Shown here in pieces: positions 4,226 to 62,968 of a stretch of DNA of 64,000 nt. Under the pieces are notes generated by a model, which saw only the letters and a program-made list of their open reading frames with translations, made no database searches and was not told where the DNA came from. Source of the stretch: an uncultured Gemmatimonadales bacterium (GTDB lineage Bacteria > Gemmatimonadota > Gemmatimonadetes > Gemmatimonadales > GWC2-71-9); the NCBI GenBank assembly GCA_963810165.1, contig CAWEMG010000049.1, forward strand, positions 11,366-75,365, written 5' to 3'. Position numbers and translations under genes: made by a program. Numbering within the stretch: position 1 is the stretch's first letter; each line of letters opens with the position of its first letter.

Positions 4226-5960
4226 TCAGGCGACCGCGTAGAGCTCCGTCACGTCCCGTCCCGCCGGCCGGCTCATCAGGCGGAACTCGTCCAGCCGCAT
4301 CATGGGGTCATCCCGAAGCTCGATGTCCACCCCGGTCAGCTTGGTGAGGGTCTGAAGCAGCCGGGGCTCCTCCTCCAGCAGGTACAGCGCCACCTCAGGA
4401 TGCAGCCGGACGGTCAGCTGCCGTTCGCGCCGGTCGTGTCCCGCCCGCTTGAGAGCCCGCTCCAGCCGCCGGGCCACTACTTCAGGCGTGAATACCCGGC
4501 CTGAAGCGGCGCAGGTGGGGCAGTCGGTGGTCATGGAGTGCCACAGCGATGGCCGGACCCGCTGGCGGGTCATTTCCACCAGTCCCAGCTCGGACACGGC
4601 CAGCGCCTTGGTGCGGGCCCGATCGCGGCCCAGGTGGGTGCGCAGCTCCTGGAGCACCTTGTCGCGGTTGGACCTGGTCTCCATGTCGATGAAGTCGCAC
4701 ACGATGATGCCGCCGATGTCCCGGAGACGGATCTGCCGGGCGATCTCGCGGGCCGCTTCGATGTTGGTGCGGAGGATGGTCTTCTCCGGATCCTTCTTGC
4801 CGGTATAGCGGCCGGTGTTGACGTCGATACTGATCAGCGCCTCGGTCGGCTGGATGACGAGGGAGCCGCCGGTGGGCAGCTCGACCCGGGCCTTGAAGAG
4901 GTCGCGGATCTCGGATTCGATATCGAACTTGTCGAACAGCGGCGTGGCGTCGGTGTAGAGGTGCACCCGGCTCATCAGCTCGGGATCGATCTGCTGGAGG
5001 TACTGCTCGATCTCGTTGTACAGCTCCTTCATGTCGACGTGGAGCGCATCGACCTTGGCGCTGAACAGGTCCCGGATGATGCCTCGGGTCAGGCTGGTCT
5101 CGCGCTGGAGCAGTGCCGGAGCCCGCCGCACGAAGCTCTTCTTACGGTTGATCTTCTTCCACAAGGCGAGCAGAGACTCGATCTCGCGCCGGAAGTGATC
5201 TTCGGTGACCCCTTCCGCTACCGTCCTGACGATCACGCCACCCGAATTCTCCGGCAGCAGCTTGGTGACCATCTCCCGCAGCTTGGCGCGCTGCTCCCGG
5301 CTCTCGATCTTCCGGCTGACGCCGACCTTCGAGGCGTAGGGCATGTAGACCAGGAACCGGCCCGGCAGCGAGATCTGCGCCGTCACCCGGCAGCCCTTGG
5401 AACCTATCGGCTCCTTGGTCACCTGGACGGGAAGGCTCTGCCCCTTCTTCAGAATGTCCTGGATGTTGGGGAACGCACGGCGGGGAGAGATCTCGCGCTG
5501 GCGGGCCTCACCGGCTGGTTTCTCAGCGGCGCCATTCCCGCGGCGCCCCCGGCGCCGGTCCCGGCTCCGCCAACCACCCGCCTTGCGCTCGGGGGGCGGG
5601 TCAGTGACTCCGGGGGGCTCACTCGCCTCTGGCTGCTCGGTCGACCTCGTCCTCGGCAGCCTCCTCCTCTTCCGGCTCCTCGTCCTCATCCGGCTCGAGG
5701 AGATCGGAGGCGTGCAGGAAGGCGCTCTTCTCCTGACCAATGTCGACGAACGCGGCCTGGATGCCCGGAAGGACGGCTTCGACGCGGCCAAGGTAAATGT
5801 CACCCACGGTGCGGCGATGGTCGGGACGGTCCACCAGCAGCTCTACCAGCCTATCGTCTTCCAGGATGGCCACACGGGTTTCCCGCTGGCTCCCATTGAT
5901 CAGGATCTCGCGCTTCAAGTATGACCTCGTGGAGATCACCGGGACCGCCCGGTGATTCAC
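4226..5960 (-). pseudogene. rng: Ribonuclease G/E family endoribonuclease, one frame break near 5640
   Basis: N-terminal ORF 5619-5960 has the S1 domain start (REILINGSQRETRVAILEDDRLVELLVDR...GDIYLGRVEAVLPGIQAAFVDIG). ORF 4226-5803 continues with IQDILKKGQSLPVQVTKEPIGSKG...GGIIVCDFIDM...CPTC. The join lies in an acidic linker. A likely true start is TTG 5918 (MKREILIN). Confidence 0.85.
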
Positions 5961-6046
5961 TCATCCCAGAGAAAACGCGCTCCTCGGAGGCTGCCCACGA
6001 CCGTATGGAGGAGCATGCCGCGAAAAGCGCGTCGCTGCTGGCGCTA

Positions 6047-6075
6047 ATTATATGTAGGGGAGTGATTTAGAGCAA
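6047..6075 (-). promoter_or_regulatory. Sigma-70-like promoter for the rng-rplU-rpmA operon
   Basis: Minus strand: TTGCTC (6075-6070), a 17-nt spacer, then TATAAT (6052-6047). It sits about 90-130 nt upstream of the rng start candidates. Confidence 0.5.
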
Positions 6076-6082
6076 TGAGGGC

Positions 6083-6169
6083 GAGTCGCCAGTCGCCGGT
6101 TGCCGGTTGCTAGTTGCTCAGTCGGCGACGAAGGTTGGCCCTGACTGGCGACTGACGACTGGCGACTGC
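6083..6169. repeat. Heptamer-repeat inverted arms (AGTCGCC / GGTTGCC units)
   Basis: GAGTCGCCAGTCGCC-GGTTGCCGGTTGCTAGTTGC...CTGACTGGCGACTGACGACTGGCGACTGC. The left AGTCGCCAGTCG is the reverse complement of the right CGACTGGCGACT. The right arm abuts the acyl-CoA dehydrogenase stop codon. Confidence 0.6.
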
Positions 6170-7386
6170 TAATCCACCGTCTCCCCCAGAATGTGCCTGG
6201 CAATCACGATCCGCTGGATCTCGCTGGTCCCTTCCCCGATCTCGCAGACCTTGGCATCTCGCATCATGCGCTCCACCGGGTACTCGGTGGTGTAGCCGTA
6301 GCCGCCGAAGATCTGGACTGCCTTGGTGGTGGCCCGCATGGCCAGCTCCGAGCAGAACAGCTTGGCCATGGCCGCCTCCTTCTTGAAGGGGCGGCCGCTC
6401 TGCTTGAGCCAGGCAGCGTGGTACAGGAGATGGGTTCCGGCCTCGATCTCCAGGGCCATATCGGCGAGCTGGAAGCTGACGCCCTGGAAGCTCCCAATGG
6501 GGCGGCCGAACTGTTTTCTCACCCCGGCGTACTTCAGGGCTTCCTCGTAGGCTCCCTCCGCGATGCCGAGGGAGAGCGCGGCGATCCCGATGCGGCCCGC
6601 GTCGAGGGTCTTGAGGAAGTTGATGAAACCGTAGCCCGGCCGCCCCAGTACGTTCTCCTTCGGCACCACCGCATCTTCGAAGATCAGCTCCCGGGTGTCG
6701 CTGGCCCGCCACCCCATCTTGTCCTGCTTCTTCCCCGCCCTGACCCCCTTGGTCTTGGGCAGATCGGGTGCGTGGCCGATGCCCAGCCGGCGAGCCTGAT
6801 CCAGATCGACCGTGTCCTTGGTGACGATAAAGCTGGTGATTCCCTTGTTCCCTTTGCCGGCCTCGGTGCGCGCGGTGATCACGAATACTTCGCCCACGCC
6901 CGCATGAGTGATGAAGATCTTGGAGCCGTTCACCAGATAGTGATCGCCCTTATCCACCGCCGTGGTTGCGGTCCCGCCGGCATCGCTGCCGGCTCCCGGC
7001 TCCGTCAGGCCGAAGCCACCCAGAACGCGCCCCGACGCCAGCAGGGGCACGTATCTGCGCTTCTGCTCCTCGGTGCCGAACTCGACGATGGGAGATGTGC
7101 CCAGGTTGGTGTGGGCACTGATGGTCAGCGCATGACTGGCGTCGACCTTTGCCATCTCGTGGATGGTGATGTAGTACGACAGCTGATCCATGCCCGCACC
7201 GCCCAACTCCTCGCTCCAGGGAACTCCCAGGAGCCCCAGCTCGCCCATCGCCTTGATGTTGTCCCACGGGAAGGTCGAGGTACGATCGAGCTCCGGCGCC
7301 ACGGGGAGGATGTGGGTCTGCGAGAAGTCACGCACCATCTCGCGAACCTGGTGGTGGTGCTCGGTGAAGTACAACGAGTCGTCCAT
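6169..7386 (-). CDS. Acyl-CoA dehydrogenase
   Basis: 405 aa, intact. [78 protein letters not shown]. Confidence 0.92.
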
Positions 7387-44898: not shown

Positions 44899-44954
44899 GC
44901 TCTTCGCTTAGCGAGTCGGCCACAGCGTCGTCGCCGATGGCGGCGGCGCTGCGT

Positions 44955-45036
44955 GCAAAGCGGAACGGCGGAAAGGCGGAAGATCAAGCGCGGTGTCATC
45001 CTTCCGCGATCCGTCCCTCCGCTCGCCGCCTCCGTG
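44955..45036. repeat. GGCGGAAN-octamer imperfect inverted arms
   Basis: GCAAAGCGGAACGGCGGAAAGGCGGAAGATC ... ATCCTTCCGCGATCCGTCCCTCCGCTCGCCGCCTCCGTG. It lies between the susD stop and the GH13 start and is followed by AAACTAGGAGCGAT (RBS module shared with element A). Confidence 0.6.
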
Positions 45037-45059
45037 TGACCGAAACTAGGAGCGATCAC

Positions 45060-46414
45060 ATGCTGAATCGTCTGGCCTGTGCATTCATAGCAATGTCCCT
45101 CACAGCGGCACGGCGCGCGTTCGGGCCAAGCCCCTGCCCTGCCCGACACATCCTGGGTCGCGCGGAGCGCCCTCTACGAGGTGTTCGTCCAGGACTTCTC
45201 GCCCTCGGGCAACTTCCGTGGCCTCATCGATGGGCTGCGATCGCATTCAGGCGTCCGGGGCCAACGTGCTGTGGCTGATGCCGATCTACCCGATCGGCAC
45301 GCTCAACCGGAAGGGAACGCTGGGGTCGCCATATGCGGTGAGAGACTACCGCGCGCATCAACCCCGCGTACGGCAATGCCGCGGACTTCCGGGCGCTGGT
45401 GGAGGCGGTGCATGCGGCGCGGGATGAAGCTCATCCTCGACTGGGTGCCGAACCACACCGCTCCCGACCATGCCTGGGTCAAGCAGCACCCCGACTACTA
45501 CGTCCGGAACGAGCGCGGCGAGCCGAGCGTGCCACGGGATGAGAAGGGAAAGCTGACCGACTGGACCGACGTCGCGCAGCTGGACTACAAGAATCCCGCG
45601 GTCCGGCGCGAGATGATCGCCACCATGCAGCACTGGCTGAAGGAGTTCGGGATCGACGGCTTCCGGGTCGACGTCGCCGGCTTCATCCCGATCGACTTCT
45701 GGCGCGAGGCGGTACCCAAGCATCCGCGCCGCGGTGCCCCGGCGGATCATGCTGCTGGCCGAATGGGGCGACCTGGAGATGCACCGGGCCGGCTTCGACC
45801 TGACCTACGCCTGGGACTCCTACGACCGGCTCAAGGCAGTGTGGCAGGGAGCGCCGGCATCGAGCTTCGTCCAGGGCGAGCTGCCGGACATGAAGGCCAT
45901 GCCCCCGGGCGGGATGCGCATGCGCTTCAGCACCAACCACGACAAGACGGCCTGGGAGGATCCTCCGGTGAAGATCTTCGGTCCCGCAGCCGGAGCGCGG
46001 GCGGCCTTCGTCGCCGTGGCGCTGCTGCCGGGCCGGCCCCTGCTCTACAACGGGCAGGAGGTCGAGAGCCCGCAGAAGCTGCGGCCTGTTCGAGCGCGAC
46101 CCCATCCGGTGGAATCAGCCGCAGGCGAGCCGAGGCCCGAGCATTTTACGCCAAAGTTATCGGGCTGGCGCGGACCGAGCCCTCGCTGCTCGTCGCCGGA
46201 CCTCCGGCCGATCGAGACCAGCGCCCCCAAGGACGTGATCGCGTATCGCCGGGGCGATCTGGTCGTGCTGGTGAACGCCAGGCCACGCGCGGTGAGCTTC
46301 ACCGTGACCGGCTTCGACGTGGATGGCGCGCGTGACCTCCTGTCGAAGAACACGCAACGTGGCGACACCATCTCGCTGCCGGCACATGGGCCGCTGGTCC
46401 TGAAGAAGCCCTAG
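45060..46414 (+). pseudogene. GH13 alpha-amylase-family glycosidase, about 5-6 frame breaks
   Basis: AGGAG lies 7 nt before ATG 45060, with signal-like MLNRLACAFIAMSLTAA. GH13 regions I DWVPNHT, II GFRVDVAGF, III LLAEW, IV FSTNHD, distributed over three frames. Confidence 0.85.
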
Positions 46415-46430: not shown

Positions 46431-46605
46431 ACAAAGCAACTGCGCACCACGGAAGCACGGAAGACACGGAAAAAACACGGAAGAAACAGCATGTTTGCCG
46501 CACCAAAGCTTGGCGCCACAAGTCGTCAGAAAACTATAGGAGCGATGTTGATTCTTCCGTGCAGCTTCCGTGTTTTCCGTGTTTCCGTGGTGGGCCTTTG
46601 TTTTC
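46431..46605. repeat. CACGGAAG-octamer inverted-repeat element, copy A (~175 bp)
   Basis: Left arm ACAAAGCAACTGCGCACCACGGAAGCACGGAAGACACGGAAAAAACACGGAAGAAAC. Right arm GATTCTTCCGTGCAGCTTCCGTGTTTTCCGTGTTTCCGTGGTGGGCCTTTGTTTTC. The ~65-nt loop contains AAACTATAGGAGCGATG. Confidence 0.85.
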
Positions 46606-49034
46606 TCATCACGGCAGCGCCGGCCACCGCGCAGCGGCAGCGCCTCTCCATGGACCCGGGCTGGCGTTTTACGCTTGGCGATCCCGCCGGAGCCGAGCAG
46701 GCCGTCGTTCGATGATCGCCGTTGGCGCTCGCTGGACCTGCCGCATGACTGGAGCATCGAGGGGACTCCGCGGGAAGATGCGCCCGGCGGGGGCCGGGTG
46801 GGCTACTTCCCTGCCGGCATCGGCTGGTACCGCAAGACCTTTCGGTTGCCGTCGGGTGCGCGTGATCGCGACGCGTGGCTCGAGTTCGACGGCGTGTACA
46901 TGAACAGCGACGTCTGGATCAACGGCGTCCACCTCGGCAACCGGCCGTACGGGTACATCAGCTTCGCCTACGACATCACCCGGCACCTGGTGCCGGGCGT
47001 GAACGTGATCGCGGTGCGGGTGGACAACGCGCAGGCAACCCAACTCCCGGTGGTACACCGGCAGCGGCATCTACCGGCACGTCTGGCTGACCCTGGTGGA
47101 CCGGTTGCACGTCGGCCACTGGGGCACCTATGTGACCACACCACGCGTCGATTCCGCCGGGGCCGAGGTGGTGGTCCGTACCCGGGTCGAGAATGGCCAC
47201 CCCAAGGCCCGGAACGGGGTGCTTCGCTCGGTAGTGATGGACAGCGGCGGCCGGGAGGTCGCACGGGCAGACACCTCCTTCACCCTGGCCGCCGGCGCCA
47301 AGATGGAGCTGGAGCAACGCCTCCGGGTCGCATCGCCCGCGGCTGTGGTCGGTGGAGTCACCGACGCTGTATCAGCTCCACTCGGTCGTGCGGGACGGCA
47401 AGCGCGCAGCCGACCGGGCTATCACGACGTTCGGCATTCGCACATCGAGTACCACAAGGATCGCGGCTTTCTGCTCAACGGCCGACAGGTCAAGATGCGG
47501 GGCGTGAACCTGCACCACGAAGCCGGCGGCCTCGGCGCCGCGGTCCCGGAGCAGGTCTGGCGCCGCCGGCTCCAGATCCTGAAGGCGATGGGGGCCAACG
47601 CCATCCGCACCGCCCACAATCCACCTGCGGCTGAGTTCCTCGATCTGTGCGACAGCTGGGCTTCCTGGTCATGGCGGAGGCGTTCGACGAGTGGACCGTC
47701 CCCAAGGTACCGGAGGGATATCACAAGTAGTTCGCCGAGTGGGCCGAGCGAGACGTCACCGATTTCGTCCGGCGGGACCGGAATCACCCTTCGATCGTGC
47801 TGTGGAGCGCGGGCAACGAGATCGGCGAGCAGAGCATGCCCGGCGGAGACCGGGTGCTCCGCCGCCTCGTCGATCATCTTCCACCGTGAGGATCCCACCC
47901 GGCCGGTGACCACCGGCAACGACAAGATCGCCGCCGATAGCACTCCCGCCACGCTCGCGTTCCTCAATGCCCTGGACATCGTGGGCTACAACTACGTGGA
48001 TCGCTGGCACGAGCGCCGGGAGATCTTCGCCACCGAGGACCGGCACCAGCACCCGGAGTGGAAGATGATCGGCACCGAGAGCGGCACCATCTTCCAGTCC
48101 TTCGACGAGCGCTATTCGCTGGGGCCGGATTCGTCGGTCGTCCGTCCCAACTACACTCATGGCATGCTCCAGGCGGAGCGGCTCTGGAAGTGGATCACGC
48201 TGAACGACTACTTTGCCGGCAACTTCATGTGGACCGGGATCGATTACCTCGGCGAGAGCACCTGGCCCTTCAAGGGCTTCCCCTCGGGTGCCATGGACAT
48301 CACCGGCGCTCCCAAGGACATCTACTACCTCTATCAGAGCCTGTGGACCGATCAGCCGGTGCTGCGCCTCTTCCCCCACTGGAACTGGCCCGCCGCACCG
48401 GCCAGGTGATCCCGGTGCTGGCCTACACCAACTGCAACATCGTGGAGCTGTTTCTCAACGGCCGCTCCCTGGGCGAGAAGCGGCTGGAGTTCCCGGCCCA
48501 GGGCACATCCGGCGGCTGGAACAGCTACGCCCAACCACTGGTCAATCCGACCACCACCGACCTGCACCTGAGCTGGGACGTGCCCTATGAGCCGGGCGTG
48601 CTCCGGGCGGTGGGCAAGCGCCGCGACGGAACGGTCGGCATGCCAGGCGGAGACCCGAACAGCTGGCCCGGCGGCGGCCATCCGGCTTGTCCGCGGACCG
48701 GGATACCATCACCACCGGTTCGGGTGACGTCGCGCACGTGACGTTCGAAATCGTGGACTCGGCCGGCACCGTGGTCCCCACCGCGGACAACTCTCGTGAC
48801 CATCACGGCGGCAGGTGGCACCGCCTCTGGTGGTGGACAACGCCGACCTGCTCGACCTCGCTCCATACCGGCCCGACCGCCGGCGTGCGTTCAACGGCCG
48901 AGGGCTGGCGATTCGTGCGAGCCGAGAAGCCGGGTGTGCTACGGGTGAGCGCGAGCGCGGATCGGTTGAGCCCGGCGACCGTGACCGTGCAAGTGGTGCG
49001 AGGTCCGCGGCAATCTGACGCGGGCCGGAGGTGA
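46545..49034 (+). pseudogene. GH2-family glycosidase (beta-galactosidase-like), about 8 frame breaks plus an in-frame TAG at 47728-47730
   Basis: [149 protein letters not shown]. The signal peptide MLILPCSFRVFRVSVVGLCFLITAAPATAQ is encoded by the right arm of element A. Confidence 0.85.
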
Positions 49035-57103: not shown

Positions 57104-58691
57104 ATGGCAACACACGCCGTAACTGCTCCTGCTCTGCCAGTCCGCACGAAGCCGCGACTCACGTTCTGGGAAATCTGGAACATGAGCTTCGGCTTCCTCG
57201 GCATTCAGATCGGCTTCGCCCTCCAGAATGCCAACGTGAGCCGGATCTTCGAGACCCTGGGTGCCAAGGTGGAGAACATCCCCATCCTCTGGATCGCAGC
57301 ACCGGTGACCGGTCTCCTGGTCCAGCCGATCGTCGGCTACATGAGCGATCGGACCTGGAACCGCCTGGGCCGACGGCGGCCTTACTTCCTGGTGGGGGCG
57401 ATCCTGGCGTCGCTCGCGCTGCTGGCGATGCCGAACTCGCCGGCGCTCTGGGTCGCGGCGGGTATGCTCTGGATCATGGATGCGTCGATCAACATCTCCA
57501 TGGAACCGTTTCGCGCCTTCGTGGGCGACAATCTGCCCTCGGAGCAGCGGACCACCGGTTTCGCGATGCAGAGCTTCCTCATCGGCACCGGCGCGGTGGC
57601 GGCCTCGATTCTTCCCTGGCTCCTGACCACGCAGTTCGGGGTGAGCAACGAGGCGCCGCCGCACATGATCCCGGACTCGGTGCGGCTCTCGTTCTACTTC
57701 GGCGCCGCGGTGTTCTTTCTGGCGGTGCTGTGGACGGTGCTGCGCTCGAAGGAGTATGCGCCCGAGGAGATGGCCAGCTTCGCGGAGAACCAGGCGCGGG
57801 AGGGCGTAAGACAGGAGAGTCGAACGGCCGCGGAGTTCAGCGTGAACGGCGGGCGCCAGATCCGCGTGGGGGCGATCCTATTGGTTGTCGGCGTGGTGCT
57901 GAGCGCCTGGCTGGCCCGGGCCGAGATCTACCAGGTGATGATCCTGTCTGCCGGGGTCGCGGCCGTTGGGCGTGCTGCTGATCCTCAGTGGTCTGCTGCA
58001 GCGGGGCGGCCGCTACGACAACGGCTTCGTCACCATCCTGAACGACTTCCAGGACATGCCCCGTACCATGAAGCAGCTGGCCTGGGTCCAGTTCTTCTCC
58101 TGGTTCGCGCTCTTCGCCATGTGGATCTACACCACGCCGGCGGTGACCAGCCATCTCTACGGCACCACCGACGCCAGCTCGGCGCTCTACAACGAGGGCG
58201 CCAACTGGGTCGGGGTGGGTTCGGCGCGTACAACGGCGTCGCGGCCGTGGTCGCCTTCGGAATCCCGATCCTGGCGCGGCGGACCAACCGCAGGATCGCG
58301 CACGCGATCTGTCTGGTCTGCGGCGCCCTCGGGCTGCTATCGATTCTGGTGCTCAACGATCCGCGTCTCCTGCTGGGCTCGATGGTGGGGGTCGGGATCG
58401 CCTGGGCCAGCATCCTCGCCATGCCGTACGCGATCCTGACCGGCTCGCTGCCGCCGTCGAAAATGGGCTACTACATGGGGGTGTTCAATTTCTTCATCGT
58501 GATCCCCCAGATCGTCGCGGCGGCGCTTCTGGGCTTTCTGGTGGGGCGCTTTTTCGGTGGCGAGGCGATCTACGCGCTCGCCATCGGCGGCGGCTCGCTG
58601 CTCCTGGCCGCGGTGCTCACCCTGCGAGTAGAGGACAGGGACGAGCCGGAGACCGGGACGTGGCATCCAGGGTTCCCTCCACCTCGGTCTG
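57104..58691 (+). pseudogene. MFS sugar transporter (SLC45/GPH-like, maltose/sucrose type), 2-3 frame breaks, C-terminus unresolved
   Basis: LTFWEIWNMSFGFLGIQIGFALQNANVSRIFETLGA...QPIVGYMSDRTW.RLGRRRPYFLVG...MEPFRAFVGDNLP. The second half (MKQLAWVQFFSWFALFAMW..., GIAWASILAMPYAIL) is in other frames. The given frame reads through element C to 58915. Confidence 0.8.
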
Positions 58692-58697
58692 ATCATG

Positions 58698-58869
58698 GCA
58701 AAGCAACTGCGCACCACGGAACACGGAAGACGCGGAAGTGCCGGAACTCGGTGGAAGCCGGGAATGCGTCGCGTAACGGAGGTAGACATCCAGTCGGTAT
58801 CAGCCCTTGCCTAGCTGTTCCGTGCGACTTCCGTGTCTTCCGTGTTTCCGTGGTGCGCTTTTGTTTTTG
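58698..58869. repeat. CACGGAAG-octamer inverted-repeat element, copy C (~172 bp)
   Basis: Left arm GCAAAGCAACTGCGCACCACGGAACACGGAAGACGCGGAAGTGCCGGAAC. Right arm CTGTTCCGTGCGACTTCCGTGTCTTCCGTGTTTCCGTGGTGCGCTTTTGTTTTTG. Confidence 0.85.
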
Positions 58870-60519
58870 TTCGCCACGCTGGTCGGCGCGTGTGGCCCCA
58901 GACCCGAGACGATGAAGTCCGTCCCGCCGGTGCGACTGCCTCAGCCACCGACCCGGCCGTGTTCTGGAACAGCGCCACCATCTACTTCCTGCTCACCGAT
59001 CGCTTTTTCAACGGAGACTCGACCAACGACCGCGCCGCGGGCCGCGCGAAGGACGGAGCGGTGCTGCGGAACTTCGAGGGTGGAGACCTCGCCGGCGTGC
59101 TCCAGAAGATCGAGGAGGGATACTTCGACAGCCTGGGCGTGACCGCCATCTGGATGACTCCGTTCGTGGAGCAGATCCACGCAGGGGTCGACGAGGGAAC
59201 CGGGAAGACCTACGGATACCACGGCTACTGGACCCGCGACTGGACCGCCGTGGATCCAGCGCTGGGAACCACAGGACGACCTTCGCGCGGTGGTGGACGC
59301 TGCCCATCGGCATGGCATTCGGGTCCTCATGGACGCAGTGATCAACCACACCGGCCCAGCGACCCCACAGGATCCCGCGTGGCCCGGCGACTGGGTGCGC
59401 ACGGCTCCCAACTGCTCCTACAAGAGCTACGTCACCACGGTGGACTGCACCCTGGTGGCCACGCTTCCCGACATCCGCACCGATCGCGACGCGCCGGTGG
59501 CACTCCCTCCAGCCCTGCTCGAGAAGTGGCAGCAGGAGGGGCGACGGGAGCGCGAAGTGGCGGAGCTCGACGCGTTCTTCGAGCGCACCGGGTACCCGCG
59601 CGCACCGCGCTACTATGTCATCAAATGGCTGACCGATTGGGTGCGCGAGCTCGGCTTCGACGGCTATCGGCTGGACACCGCCAAGCACTTCGAGCCGGCG
59701 GTCAGCGCCGAGCTGAGGCGTGAAGCCGAAGAGGCGCTGAGCGGACTGGAGGCGGACGCATTCGGATCAGGTTCGGGACAGCCTGCCTGTTCTACATGGT
59801 GGGCGAGGTCTACGGTTGGGAGCCGGGCCAGGGCGCGGGAGTACAGCTTCGGCGACCGGACCGTGGACTTCTTCTCCCACGGTTACGACGCCCTCATCAA
59901 CTTTGGCTTCAAGAGCGATACCGCGTCGCTGGATGGTCTCTTCAGCCGGTACTCCGCGATGCTCGACGGCGGGATCACTCCGCGGGGTCAGCATGCTCAA
60001 CTACATCAGCTCTCACGACGACGGATCGCCGTACGATCCCGACCGGAAGGATCCCATCGGCGCCGGGACGCGACTGCTGCTCGCACCAGGGGGCGCTCAG
60101 ATCTACTACGGCGACGAGCTGGCGCGGCCGCTGAGGGTCTCAGGGGCCGAGGGCGATGCGAACCTGCGGTCGTTCATGAACTGGGGAGATCTGGAGCGCC
60201 GGGCCGAGGTTCTACAGCATTGGCGCAAGCTGGGGCGATTCCGTCGGGCCCATCCTGCCGTGGGGGCCGGCGTACATCGCACGCTTCAGGCGAAGCCGTA
60301 CATCTTCAGCCGCACGCTCGAGTCGGGGGGCAAGGTCCGATCGCGTGCTGGTGGCGATGGATCAGGGAAAGGGGGCCAAGACGATCCCGGTGTTTGGCGT
60401 GTTCCCCGATGGCACCAAACTGGTGGACGCATACTCGGGCGTGTAGCCACTGTGTAAGAGACGGGAAGGTTTCGCTTACGACCGGATCCGGCCTGGTACT
60501 GCTCGCTGAGCCACGGTAA
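58822..60519 (+). pseudogene. GH13 alpha-amylase, lipoprotein, about 5 frame breaks
   Basis: GTG 58822 gives (M)RLPCLPCFRGALLFLFATLVGAC (lipobox), encoded by the right arm of element C. FLLTDRFFNGD, GH13 regions I LMDAVINHTG, II GYRLDTAKH, III MVGEVYG, IV NYISSHDD. The end is ...KVSLTTGSGLVLLAEPR*. Confidence 0.85.
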
Positions 60520-61084
60520 AGGCGCACCACGGAAGCACGGAAGACACGGAAGTAGCACGGAAGAACGGACATTACCGCAGAAATCGACTTAATGCCGTGC
60601 GAACAGAGTTGATACGTTGAATTTAATGAGAGAGTCCGGAGGACTCCCATTGCAGGCGCATGTAAGTCAACTGAGCTGATGCGGAATGAATCGGGGACGG
60701 TTTATCACTGATTTTATTTCGACAACTAGGACGTCTTCGATCAGTAGATCAATGACATACCCCTTCGCGAGCTGTATTCCCTTGTATTGCAAGAGGCAAG
60801 ACAACCTCGCTTCGATACGGGATCTCTCGAGCTCGCGACACGGGCATATATCATTGATTCGTTGATCGAGAGACCGGGCCTAATTGACGAGATCAAAGCC
60901 GTCGATGCAAACTCGCTGGCCGTTCGTCTGCATGACTGATGAGCCTACATGCGTCTCACAACAGCTCTCCCATGATCTTCTCGACTGAATTATCAACGTT
61001 CACCTTTTACCGCACGGCATCAAGAGAATCTGCTGTGATCCGTGCCTTCCGTGTCTTCCGTGCTTCCGTGGTGAGCTTTTGCAG
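60516..61084. mobile_element. CACGGAAG-octamer inverted-repeat element, copy D (~570 bp), with a low-GC core carrying a GxxExxY pseudogene; IVS-like cassette
   Basis: Left arm 60516-60568 and right arm 61037-61084 are reverse complements. A nested 10-bp inverted repeat ATGCCGTGCG/CGCACGGCAT lies at 60592-60601 / 61011-61020. The core is ~49% GC by hand count (205/420 over 60601-61020). It sits between two convergent GH13 stops (60519 and 61093). Confidence 0.7.
60572..61003 (-). pseudogene. GxxExxY-family (PD-(D/E)XK nuclease fold) protein remnant
   Basis: Minus-strand hand translation: ...RPGLSINESMIY... / ...LSCLLQYKGIQLAKGYVIDLLIEDVLVVEIKSVINRPRFIPHQLS*LTCACNGSPPDSLIKFNVSTLFARH* / HGIKSISAV. 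This matches the family pattern YKG..L..GY..DLLVE..VIVELK...H.AQL..YL...LLINFNV...GIKR, with in-frame stops and frame breaks. Confidence 0.6.
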
Positions 61085-61092
61085 TTACGGCG

Positions 61093-62968
61093 CTACTCTC
61101 TGATCCAGATCCTAGCCGCCCGAGCCGGCAGCTGGGCCTTGAGCTTCCCGTCGACAACGTTCGCTGTCCCGCCCGCCGGAAAGGCGAGCCGATAACTTCC
61201 CTCCGCCGCGAGGGAGATCTCCTGTGGCGCATCCGAGACGTTGAACGCCACAATGGCGCGCTGGTCGCCCAGAACCCGGTCGTACGCCAGCAGGCCCCGG
61301 CGCATCGTCGGTAAGTAGCCAGTTCAAGGTTCCGTCGACGAACAGTCGCAGATTCTGCTTCCTCAGCGTGATCAGGTCGCGGTATACCCGGAAGAGCGCG
61401 GTGTCGGGCGCCACCGGGTCCCGCCGGCGAGGCCGGCCGAACGGATGTACCACCTCGTCCTCGTAGCGCTGATCCGACCACACCATCGGCTTCCGCTCGT
61501 CCGGGTCGTCGGCGCCCCACATGCCTACCTCGTCGCCGTTCCAGATGTGCGGCGCACCGATGTAGGTGAACTGCTGTGCCAGGATCATCTCCTGCGTCTG
61601 GCGGGTGCGCTGCGTCGGGCCGGTCGATCCGGTAGGCGGGGTCCTCGCGGGGCGAGTTGTGGTACTTGTAGCGGCCGGGATTGTAGATCGACGTGCCGAA
61701 GCGCGGAGTGTCGTGGCTCGCCGGTCAGGTTCATCATCGCCTTGACGTGCGTGGGGCCGATCCCGGTGGCCAGTGAGTCCAGGCTGTGCCGCGTACGCCG
61801 TGGGAGTGAGCGGCGCCGGCGCCTTCGCGAAGAAGCTGCGGGTCGGCATGTACCAGCGGTAGTTCATCACCGCGTCGAACACGTCGCCCTTGAGCCACGG
61901 GATCGGGTCGTAGATCGTGTCGGGCCATTTCTCCCACCATACCTCGCCCACCAGGTACGCCTCGGGGTTGATGCTCCGGACGAAGCGCCGGTAGTCGCGC
62001 CAGAAGCCCAGCGGAACCATCTCGGCCACGTCCAACCGGAAGCCGTCGACTCCGTCAGACGGGATCGCCGTCGCCATTGGGGTCCAGCCAGCGGCGGGTC
62101 ACGTGGAACACCTGGTCTCGGACGCCGGGGACGAGGTTGCCCTCGATCGCGCCGTGGGTCTTCCCCGGCGGCCGGCCCACCTTCTTCCATTCCGGCAGCC
62201 ATGGCACACCGACCCATCCGCGATACCGGAACTCGTTCGTGTCCGCGGTGGCAGGGTCATCGAAGCGCTCGATCGCGTACCAGTCGGCGAAGCGCGACGC
62301 GCGCTGCTTGGCGAGCACATCCTTCCAGGCCCAGAAAGAGATCCCGGTGTGGTTCCAGGAGTAGTCCATGATGATGCGCATGCCCGCGGCGATGCGCCTC
62401 GCGCACCAGGCGCGAGGAACAGGCTGTCGGCGGCGGTCCACTTCCAGGTGGCCGGGTCCACCGGGTTCTTCGGCCGCCATGAGGGCTTCGTCGCCGCGCG
62501 GGTCGGGGCCGAAGTTGCGGTCGATGTGGTGGTAGTTCCGGGCGTCGTACTTGTGCAGCGAGGGTGCGTCGTTCACCGGGTTGAGATACAGCGCCGTGAC
62601 GCCGAGATCCTGGAGATAGTCGAGCCGGTCGATGACGCCCTGGAGATCGCCGCCGTAGCGGCGGGACTGGACCGTGGCGTAGAAGTCCTTCCCGGTCGCT
62701 TTGGCCCAGGGCTCCTGCCGGTACCAGTCCTGCGACCAGGGCGTCGGCCGCCAGTCGCGGGGTGGCGGCTGATCCGTCACCCCTTCGATGTCGTGGGGGG
62801 TCGGATCGTTGGACGGGTCGCCGTTGCGAAAGCGTTCGACGAAGATCTGGTACCAGACCACGTCGCCGGCCCAGGCGGGCACGCTCCAGGTTGCCGCCGG
62901 GCGCCTCCTGGGGCGCGCCTCCTGGCGCAGGCGGCGCCGAGGAGCAGGAGAATCAGTAGCCTGGGCAA
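61093..62968 (-). pseudogene. GH13 glycosidase (cyclomaltodextrinase/neopullulanase-like), about 7 frame breaks
   Basis: Signal MPRLLILLLLGAACA. VVWYQIFVERFRNGDPSND, RRYGGDLQGVIDRLDYLQDLGVTALYLNPV, GH13 regions I IMDYSWNHTG, II GFRLDVAEM, III LVGEVW. IGAPHIWNGDEVGMWG. The end is ...KLKAQLPARAARIWIRE*. Confidence 0.85.

Follow-up and report, generated by a model that had tools for sequence, protein, structure and literature searches.

A degenerate, rearranged copy of a hairpin-enclosed GxxExxY nuclease gene between two alpha-amylase genes of an uncultured Gemmatimonadales bacterium

The window analysed here, a stretch of 64,000 nucleotides (nt) from an uncultured Gemmatimonadales bacterium (GenBank assembly GCA_963810165.1, contig CAWEMG010000049.1, positions 11,366 to 75,365 of the forward strand), carries at positions 60513-61085 a cassette that is bounded by inverted arrays of a tandem octamer and lies between two convergent alpha-amylase genes. 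The cassette is a degenerate, rearranged and dead copy with no functional open reading frame (ORF), and homology clearly points to a gene of the GxxExxY family, which belongs to the PD-(D/E)XK nucleases, as the source of its core. The best explanation of the whole, to which we give a modest preference, is that it represents a rearranged copy of a conserved unit, a nuclease gene enclosed in a hairpin, that would work in a manner resembling the REPIN-RAYT systems, in which doublets of repetitive extragenic palindromic (REP) sequences, the REPINs, are accompanied by a REP-associated tyrosine transposase, the RAYT (Bertels & Rainey 2011, PMC3116915; PMC3337134; bioRxiv 10.1101/2021.07.10.451892). 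As a dead copy, the locus has little consequence for its host; its value lies in the regularity that it exposes in the GxxExxY family, from which a first testable role could follow for a very large protein family whose function is unknown.

Identity and arrangement of the core gene

A peptide stitched together from the minus strand of the core reached 33.1 bits with the PF13366 (PDDEXK_3) profile, exceeding its gathering cut-off of 22, and 32.6 bits (E = 8e-8) with TIGR04256 (GxxExxY), where the curated cut-off of 35 was narrowly missed. The family assignment proposed in an earlier reading of this DNA (the initial annotation) is therefore upheld by the first profile and falls just short with the second. 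The match spans profile positions ~23-89 only, and the scores of the pseudogene fragment range from 26.9 to 33.1 bits for PF13366 and from 29 to 32.6 bits for TIGR04256, while a family profile built in this analysis matches the minus strand at positions 36-117 only, with 37.9 bits. The claim of GxxExxY homology holds because of these profile matches and because of those to the nearest database proteins, namely 128-aa GxxExxY proteins at 41-47% identity and one 78-aa fragment at 62%. The minus-strand peptide strings quoted in the initial annotation are all present in the three minus frames.

Instead of the single decayed ORF that had been assumed between the arms, the core holds a minus-strand fragment and an inverted, plus-strand duplicate of the 3' part of the same gene. 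Read from left to right, the cassette consists of the left arm, the minus-strand fragment with codons ~40-127 (from 60846 down to 60577), the short palindrome TCTCGAGCTCGCGA, the plus-strand fragment with codons ~64-128, and the right arm. The minus-strand fragment keeps the catalytic D...ExK motif as YVIDLL...VVEIK; it is interrupted by an in-frame stop (HQLS*L) and several frame changes, and it lacks the N-terminal ~39 codons together with the GxGxxExxY motif, whose residues G27, G29, E32 and Y35 are not encountered in the window copy, the minus-strand homology starting only at codon ~40. The plus-strand fragment has a catalytic D...ExK of its own (YIIDSL...IDEIK) and closes at its right end with NVHLLPHGIKR, 11 residues identical to the C-terminus of the database protein P0003. 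With no open reading frame in either copy, the D...ExK present on both has no practical bearing. In-frame stops, the missing 5' part and the absence of any ORF of at least 60 aa bear out the earlier view that the core is non-functional as a gene.

In segment tests against five intact coding sequences, positions 60775-60840 matched codons ~40-63 on the minus strand (z = 5.5-15). For positions 60840-60960, it was the plus-strand reading that matched, covering codons ~67-103 (coding nt ~201-308) with z = 3.2-20.2 over the five orthologues and z = 11.6-20.2 for the three closest ones (L046, L078 and L027), while the minus-strand reading yielded only a 43-nt match to L046 (z = 5.6). The string RPGLSINESMIY, which the initial annotation had read as the family motif, lies in this DNA, where codons ~67-103 are matched by the plus strand (z = 11-20), and to judge from these matches it is most likely the antisense of YIIDSLIERPGL. 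A full-length minus-strand gene was considered as well, a gap-tolerant alignment having reached codon 2, but the extra part was not significant except for the 43 nt against L046, and this reading was rejected because the plus-strand reading has z = 11-20 there.

The 5' leader and the first ~39 codons are missing. In their place, over the right ~40% of the core, the 3' ~190 nt of the gene itself are repeated in inverted orientation. What has been lost, a leader of 76 nt with ~117 coding nt, is about as long as the inverted copy of ~200 nt that took its place, which is consistent with fold-back or template-switch repair having extended the repeat inward. Through this replacement of the 5' part by an inverted 3' copy, each side of the repeat has lengthened inward to ~260 bp, compared with ~50 bp before, leaving the cassette as one long imperfect palindrome. 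The inverted duplication was probably a fold-back or template-switch accident, of the kind that long inverted repeats invite.

Arms, repeats and palindromic structure of the cassette

The arms as delimited in the initial annotation (left 60516-60568, right 61037-61084) were recovered on the sequence, as were their octamers, the nested repeat, the base count of the core and its lack of longer ORFs. A repeat finder sets the arm pair at 60513-60552 and 61046-61085, with 40 nt and 90% complementarity. The left arm contains four copies of the octamer CACGGAAG and the right arm three in reverse complement, and the octamer's count of 17 in the whole window, compared with 2.9 +/- 1.8 expected, was reached in 0 of 100 shuffles. 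The nested 10-mers are exact, ATGCCGTGCG on the left and CGCACGGCAT on the right, and both lie inside a 25-nt, 76% repeat found by the repeat finder. Over positions 60601-61020, G+C amounts to 205/420 (48.8%), compared with 66.1% for the window, and the ORFs situated entirely inside 60651-61019 all stay below 60 aa, with a maximum of 59 aa. The placement of the cassette between convergent GH13 genes stands as well, both flanks being convergent and matching PF00128.

The complementarity of the cassette extends well past the arms, with 191 of 240 aligned positions (~80%) agreeing between 60513-60773 and the reverse complement of 60830-61085. The palindrome score of the two halves is 163, compared with 23 +/- 4 in shuffles (maximum 36), and as RNA the cassette is predicted to fold into one stem of ~280 bp (-264.9 kcal/mol, z = -12.2). 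The self-complement score of the inner region is 202 in the window copy, against 31 +/- 7 when shuffled; since four intact elements of other genomes score inside the shuffle range, the long palindrome is a peculiarity of the window copy.

A palindromic core of this kind might be suspected of being an assembly or consensus artefact, produced for example by mixing the two orientations of an invertible segment, given that the gene orientation differs between related genomes and that many single-base insertions in the window suggest an error-prone assembly. However, a strand switch would give perfectly complementary halves. Because the halves are only ~80% identical and each has diverged from the orthologues (72-74%) about as much as the flanking genes have, such an artefact is extremely improbable.

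Intact orthologues at the same locus

The window is syntenic, at 75-87% identity, with a number of relatives, L046, L078, L021, L063 and L025 among them. In the first four of these, the arms stand in the same place beside the convergent alpha-amylase gene, and the GxxExxY gene between them is intact, with 128 codons. On long contigs, three more close homologues (L239, L240 and L241) likewise abut a convergent alpha-amylase gene, in starch-utilisation neighbourhoods, and the element is thereby found in the same alpha-amylase spacer in at least seven other Gemmatimonadales assemblies. The conserved unit comprises a ~128-codon GxxExxY gene in a hairpin loop whose arms are built from CACGGAAG octamers, three or four per arm, and terminate in ...CACCACGG. 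Among five species the arm cores show no variation, and the mean column identity of the whole-element alignment is 56%.

Among the four intact orthologues tested, the ratio of nonsynonymous to synonymous substitution rates (dN/dS) is 0.07-0.14, except for 0.31 between L021 and L063, and dS between L046 and L078 is 0.74; these values indicate that the intact genes are under purifying selection. Relative to identical flanks, the gene is oriented on the plus strand in L046 and on the minus strand in L078, suggesting that the segment between the arms has been flipped at least once, with independent re-insertion as a possible alternative.

The initial annotation had regarded the cassette as horizontally acquired, a view that these relatives contradict. 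Given its occurrence at the same site and the purifying selection, the element is old and vertically inherited at the locus rather than recently acquired. The intact orthologues are themselves GC-poor, with 51-61% G+C compared with 65-69% for their loci and a G+C fraction at third codon positions of 0.58-0.85; the low G+C (49% here) is therefore largely a family trait and not evidence of recent arrival. More generally, low G+C and inverted repeats by themselves are no evidence of recent horizontal transfer. Two other members of the clade, L027 (107-478) and the protein P0001, are likewise scrambled over the N-terminal third and intact over the remaining, C-terminal part, and the 5' part of the gene may be its usual place of breakage.

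Association of GxxExxY genes with octamer-array arms

The GxxExxY family is large, comprising 19,032 clusters at 50% identity (E <= 0.001). In 66 diverse members, G27, G29, E32, Y35, D72, E82, K84, Q96, N113 and F114 are invariant, which indicates an intact PD-(D/E)XK site (E...D...ExK). The context of these genes was sampled without bias in metagenomes by means of a degenerate DNA pattern for V-H-x3-G-P-G-L-L-E-x2-Y, which gave 120 loci, including 60 genes flanked on each side by 300 nt or more. Flanking inverted repeats scoring at least 30 accompany 42 of the 60 genes and those scoring at least 40 accompany 26, whereas among 449 control windows of the same loci 0.4% reach 30 and none reaches 40 (Mann-Whitney p = 3e-30). 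The initial annotation had listed a lack of association between such arms and GxxExxY genes elsewhere among the findings that would speak against it; the family-wide frequency, together with the intact copies in L046, L078, L021 and L063, shows that the association exists.

In the sampled loci, the arms are arrays of three or four tandem 8-9-mers of the form C-R-C-N-R-A-G (examples of the unit are CACAGAGG, CGCAAAGG, CACGAAGG, CACGGAGG, CACAAAGG and CACAGATT), usually ending in ...(T)TCACCAC or TAACCAC; the median distance between arm and ORF is 22 nt on the start side and 8 nt on the stop side. When the same metagenome loci were searched from the arms alone, 40 pairs were found to enclose the gene, with gaps mostly of 375-560 nt, along with 22 gene-less hairpins that have loops of 1-86 nt and are usually of the same unit. 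The type of unit tracks protein similarity (Spearman 0.20; the observed value was reached in 3 of 500 permutations), a co-divergence that co-inheritance could explain as well as co-adaptation.

Several GxxExxY proteins in the databases (P0149, P0165 and P0268, among others) bear terminal extensions such as TEGTEDTE, HGDTENR or the repeated PSVFSPTSVFS...LCLCASVV, and these odd termini are gene calls running through octamer-array arms. P0124-P0140, with 260-295 aa, contain two tandem GxxExxY domains, either as true fusions or as neighbouring genes read as one, and are the best-scoring representatives for a single-domain query. The function of PDDEXK_3 has been listed as 'Unknown', with multiple transfers (Steczkiewicz et al. 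2012, PMC3424549). Other mentions of GxxExxY, PDDEXK_3 or the family accessions in open-access papers and bioRxiv preprints are incidental; neither the octamer-array arms nor a hairpin-arm context appears in any family description found there. A search with PADLOC gave a marginal match of 14.9 bits only, and PHROGs gave none.

Gene-less hairpins of the same arm family

The same arms also occur around short loops without a gene. A scan of one genome per species with the arm pattern CACCACGGAANCACGGAARACACGGAA matched at least 118 stretches, and the assemblies among the matches listed all belong to Gemmatimonadales/Gemmatimonadota or Acidobacteriaceae/Terriglobales. Among the matches listed, the loops of the arm pairs are bimodal, measuring 5-220 nt in the great majority of cases or ~470-725 nt; all of the longer loops checked among them contain GxxExxY, with the sole exception of L065. 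In this Acidobacteriaceae assembly (5850-6490), arms 559 nt apart surround an unrelated ORF of ~180 codons that resembles a small membrane protein and is without GxxExxY homology. The 27-nt arm pattern is common to two phyla, Gemmatimonadota and Acidobacteriota, although octamer types vary widely among GxxExxY clades, and this may reflect passage of the system from one soil phylum to another; the Acidobacteriota stretches that were sampled showed no GxxExxY gene flanked by arms.

Loops of three families turn up repeatedly, at separate sites and in separate genomes. The stretch L103 (1116-1386) is an internal-deletion derivative with a 212-nt loop, in which the leader and the first ~90 coding nt are joined to a 3' piece of ~45 nt, and no other short hairpin can be traced clearly to the gene-bearing form. 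The DATEJD01 assembly has six copies (L004, L007, L010, L036, L062 and L074) of a subfamily with loops of ~145 nt and near-invariant arms; the loops are ~60-75% identical by an estimate from the alignment, and the mean column identity of the whole alignment is 72%. In two of these copies the central GGGGTGGGGGGCACCCC tip is inverted, and the outer stems reach ~20-25 nt past the octamer arrays. Complementarity outside some arms had raised the possibility of insertion into pre-existing palindromic targets, which was rejected, the outer stems being part of a longer subfamily consensus.

Occupancy differs between relatives at orthologous sites. The hairpin near 58.7 kb of the window is absent from L078 and L021 and present in L046 and L025, while the one near 46.4 kb is full in L073 and L022, shortened in L071, where the middle of the left arm and the loop are largely deleted, and reduced to a remnant of the right arm in L045. 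The right arm of the former is read at 58807-58900 into the signal peptide of alpha-amylase A, ...CFRGALLFLFATLVGAC (lipobox), and that of the latter at 46559-46640 into the N-terminal signal peptide of the next gene, ...FRVFRVSVVGLCFLITAAPATAQ. In L078 and L021, which are without the 58.7-kb hairpin, the signal peptide has a different start that overlaps the upstream gene, and the insertion of this hairpin seems to have given the gene a new 5' end.

Hairpins sit mostly downstream of genes: among the 60 with both flanks callable from codon-position G+C, 41 are placed between co-directional, 17 between convergent and 2 between divergent genes. Such placement would suit host regulatory hairpins that serve as bidirectional terminators, mRNA stabilisers or a translational lock around the nuclease gene, with mobility confined to an ancient duplication. 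The excess of convergent over divergent sites (17 to 2), the T-rich tracts TTTTGTTTTTG and TTTGTTTT that follow the right arms of the two short window hairpins, and the higher conservation of the arms compared with the loops all speak for that possibility. A scan for consensus promoters and terminators, however, found nothing at the arms, the terminator scan accepting only loops of 3-8 nt, and no promoter was found in the 76-nt leader of the intact L046 element. Moreover, presence and absence vary at orthologous sites, members of one loop family appear at separate sites and the 27-nt arm pattern is common to two phyla, and a purely regulatory origin is accordingly judged very unlikely.

The numerous short copies beside a few coding ones, the terminal inverted repeats and the deletion derivative L103 also recall miniature inverted-repeat transposable elements (MITEs), and the arms could in principle belong to an ordinary REP- or MITE-like inverted-repeat family moved by an unrelated transposase, with GxxExxY as a passenger or addiction gene. 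Among the matches listed, gene-less hairpins are far more numerous than gene-bearing ones, and the arm pair of L065 encloses a different ORF; to our knowledge, moreover, no PD-(D/E)XK protein of this size transposes alone. In comparison with MITEs, no target-site duplication could be recognised at the orthologous sites, which are too diverged, the short copies mostly have nothing but the arms in common with the coding element, and the coding copy is fixed at one locus under purifying selection, unlike the multi-copy parent of MITEs. Against a passenger role, the association of gene and arms extends over many octamer types and lineages of the family (70% against 0.4% in controls), the unit type co-diverges with the protein, and the pairs found from their arms alone with a gap of 300-1000 nt, among the matches listed and in the metagenome loci, carry GxxExxY in all but one case. 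Carriage of the gene as a mere passenger is on balance improbable.

Comparison with intervening sequences and REPIN-RAYT systems

In the intervening sequence (IVS) of the 23S rRNA of Coxiella burnetii, a small ORF, S23p, sits in a long stem of terminal inverted repeats, much as the gene does in the intact elements of L046 and L078, and this insert is regarded as selfish and tolerated because its stem is processed (PMC4990558). In a corresponding reading of the present element as an RNA cassette, the arms would form a long double-stranded RNA stem for RNase III, allowing either excision from amylase read-through transcripts or release or regulation of the enclosed mRNA. The cassette is predicted to fold as a stem of ~280 bp and the short hairpins also fold strongly; hairpins that lie mostly downstream of genes would be transcribed; and arms that hug the ORF at 22 and 8 nt would pair both ends of its mRNA. 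The element, however, lies between two alpha-amylase genes and not in rRNA. Neither rRNA nor any other Rfam family was detected in the window at gathering thresholds, with nothing relevant in 58.5-61.3 kb at E <= 5, and conserved 23S rRNA motifs were found in none of the 120 sampled GxxExxY loci; the link between the family and 23S rRNA that the initial annotation had invoked was thus not recovered. The ORF families differ as well, being PF13366 here and, in the IVS, S23p, which we take to be PF05635. An RNA-only role would also leave unexplained the multi-copy hairpin families at unrelated sites, the deletion derivatives, the flipped gene and a nuclease cargo with an intact catalytic site. 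As a complete account, the RNA cassette is unlikely, yet it is compatible with the explanation preferred here.

The closest analogue appears to be REPIN-RAYT, with a PD-(D/E)XK nuclease in the place of the transposase. In both cases, a short repeat stands in inverted copies on either side of the gene and is also scattered outside genes as gene-less hairpin doublets (here in the window, in the at least 118 matching stretches and as the 22 hairpins of the metagenome loci), the gene is vertically inherited at a fixed locus rather than hopping, and the repeat part is more conserved than the spacer. The enzyme here, in contrast, is a PD-(D/E)XK nuclease of ~128 aa (PF13366) and not an IS200/IS605-type HUH Y1 transposase, and the arms consist of 3-5 tandem octamers instead of a single REP of ~25 nt. 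Because the protein belongs to PF13366 and is not a Y1 transposase, the resemblance is architectural only and implies no membership. The intact orthologues fall within the GxxExxY family as ordinary members, and the core shows homology to that family, whereas the window copy is truncated, inverted-duplicated and interrupted.

Proposed mechanism and its standing

The descriptive part of the proposed explanation is held with high confidence: a nuclease gene in a hairpin loop, gene-less copies of the hairpin, a fixed, conserved and flippable gene copy, arms conserved above loops, and hairpins behind genes. That the nuclease acts on the hairpins is put forward tentatively, by analogy with the RAYT. 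One vertically inherited gene, framed by the repeat, would encode an enzyme that recognises octamer-array hairpins, and its substrate would likely be extruded DNA hairpins or cruciforms, because the nuclease site (E...D...ExK) is complete. Many small PD-(D/E)XK enzymes are structure-specific. Nicking or cutting by the nuclease could then lead to copying, inversion and homogenisation of the hairpins, and those transcribed at the 3' ends of genes could form RNA stems acting as stabilisers, terminators or RNase III substrates. The rearrangements would be accidents of hairpin-forming DNA, comprising the inward growth of the repeat in the window, the inversion of the loop tip in DATEJD01 and the flip of the gene between L046 and L078, and the window copy would no longer be able to supply protein in its genome. 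A role at the RNA level, whether 3'-end stabilisation, termination, RNase III processing or an mRNA lock by pairing of the ends, is compatible with this mechanism, and RNase III processing of a stem this long is plausible if it is transcribed.

Several points weigh against this explanation. Approximately 30% of the sampled family members have no detectable arms, and the arm pair of L065 encloses an unrelated ORF. At filled and empty orthologous sites, neither a target-site duplication nor a clean empty site could be defined, the sites being too diverged. No relatives in the PDB were found by sequence or by family profile, and an AlphaFold2 model built from a shallow alignment (25 sequences, >=71% identical) was too poor for use in a fold search, with a predicted local distance difference test score (pLDDT) of 56. 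A role of PDDEXK_3 in DNA mobility is deduced from sequence patterns, and dependence of the hairpin population on the gene, the key prediction of REPIN-RAYT, is carried over by analogy. Conservation of the arms could result from selection on RNA structure instead of recognition by the protein. Finally, since the window sequence is indel-rich, frameshifts in the core are by themselves no evidence of decay; the case for decay is made by the loss of the 5' third, by the inverted duplicate and by in-frame stops (e.g., HQLS*L), which are independent of such indels.

If the proposed explanation is true, it would add a second, mechanistically independent system of the REPIN-RAYT kind, long-lived and vertically inherited, and would explain the function of a family of ~19,000 clusters at 50% identity. 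It would also account for database proteins with repeat-derived ends (TEGTEDTE..., SVFS...) and for many assembly breaks. In a broader and likewise tentative form of the proposal, GxxExxY nucleases and octamer-array hairpins may constitute widespread, undescribed within-genome replicators or domesticated repeat systems in many phyla, analogous to REPIN-RAYT, in which the PD-(D/E)XK protein would recognise tandem octamers of the CRCNRAG type within extruded hairpins.

Neighbouring genes and feature coordinates

The coordinates of the cassette, its flanking genes and the gene-less hairpins are collected in Table 1. A major facilitator superfamily (MFS) transporter gene lies further upstream of the cassette.

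Table 1. Features of the hairpin-enclosed cassette and related elements in the window
Feature	Position	Strand	Remarks
Left arm	60513..60568		Terminal ACGGTAAAGGCGCACCACGG, then 4 CACGGAAG units; arm core invariant in 5 orthologous elements
GxxExxY pseudogene fragment	60577..60846	-	Codons ~40-127 of intact 128-aa orthologues; DNA 74% identical to L046/L078 coding sequences
Nested repeat, left copy	60592..60601		Codons of the conserved C-terminal (P)HGIK of the minus-strand copy
Junction between opposed gene fragments	60825..60838		Short palindrome TCTCGAGCTCGCGA; located by repeat finder and segment tests
Inverted second copy of gene 3' part	60830..61038	+	Codons ~64-128; reads ...YIIDSLIERPGLIDEIKAVD...AYMRL...NVHLLPHGIKR, with stops and frame changes
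Nested repeat, right copy	61011..61020		Same PHGIK codons in the plus-strand copy
Right arm	61037..61085		3 CTTCCGTG units, end is CCGTGGTGAGCTTTTGCAGT; 7 nt from the stop codon of gene B
Alpha-amylase (GH13) gene A	58833..60446	+	PF00128 match; broken by ~6 single-base insertions compared with 2 intact orthologues (L046, L078)
Alpha-amylase (GH13) gene B	61093..62882	-	PF00128 match; convergent with gene A; split over frames; the element adjoins gene B in the other genomes examined
Gene-less hairpin	58700..58863		Between MFS transporter gene and plus-strand alpha-amylase gene; RNA fold -92.4 kcal/mol, z = -8.0
Gene-less hairpin	46431..46601		Same arm family; RNA fold -89.3 kcal/mol, z = -10.1
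Degenerate hairpin remnant	44950..45042		CGGAACGGCGGAAAGGCGGAAG ... CTTCCGCG...CTCCGTG; recognised by alignment to L045, which has the full hairpin there; no significant fold (z = -0.6)

Genes of the window are split over frames at 58880-60450, 45181-46414, 57104-58915 and 61093-62882, which suggests an indel-rich assembly of the long-read type more than pseudogenes. Similarly fragmented gene calls are seen in L239, a contig of another assembly.

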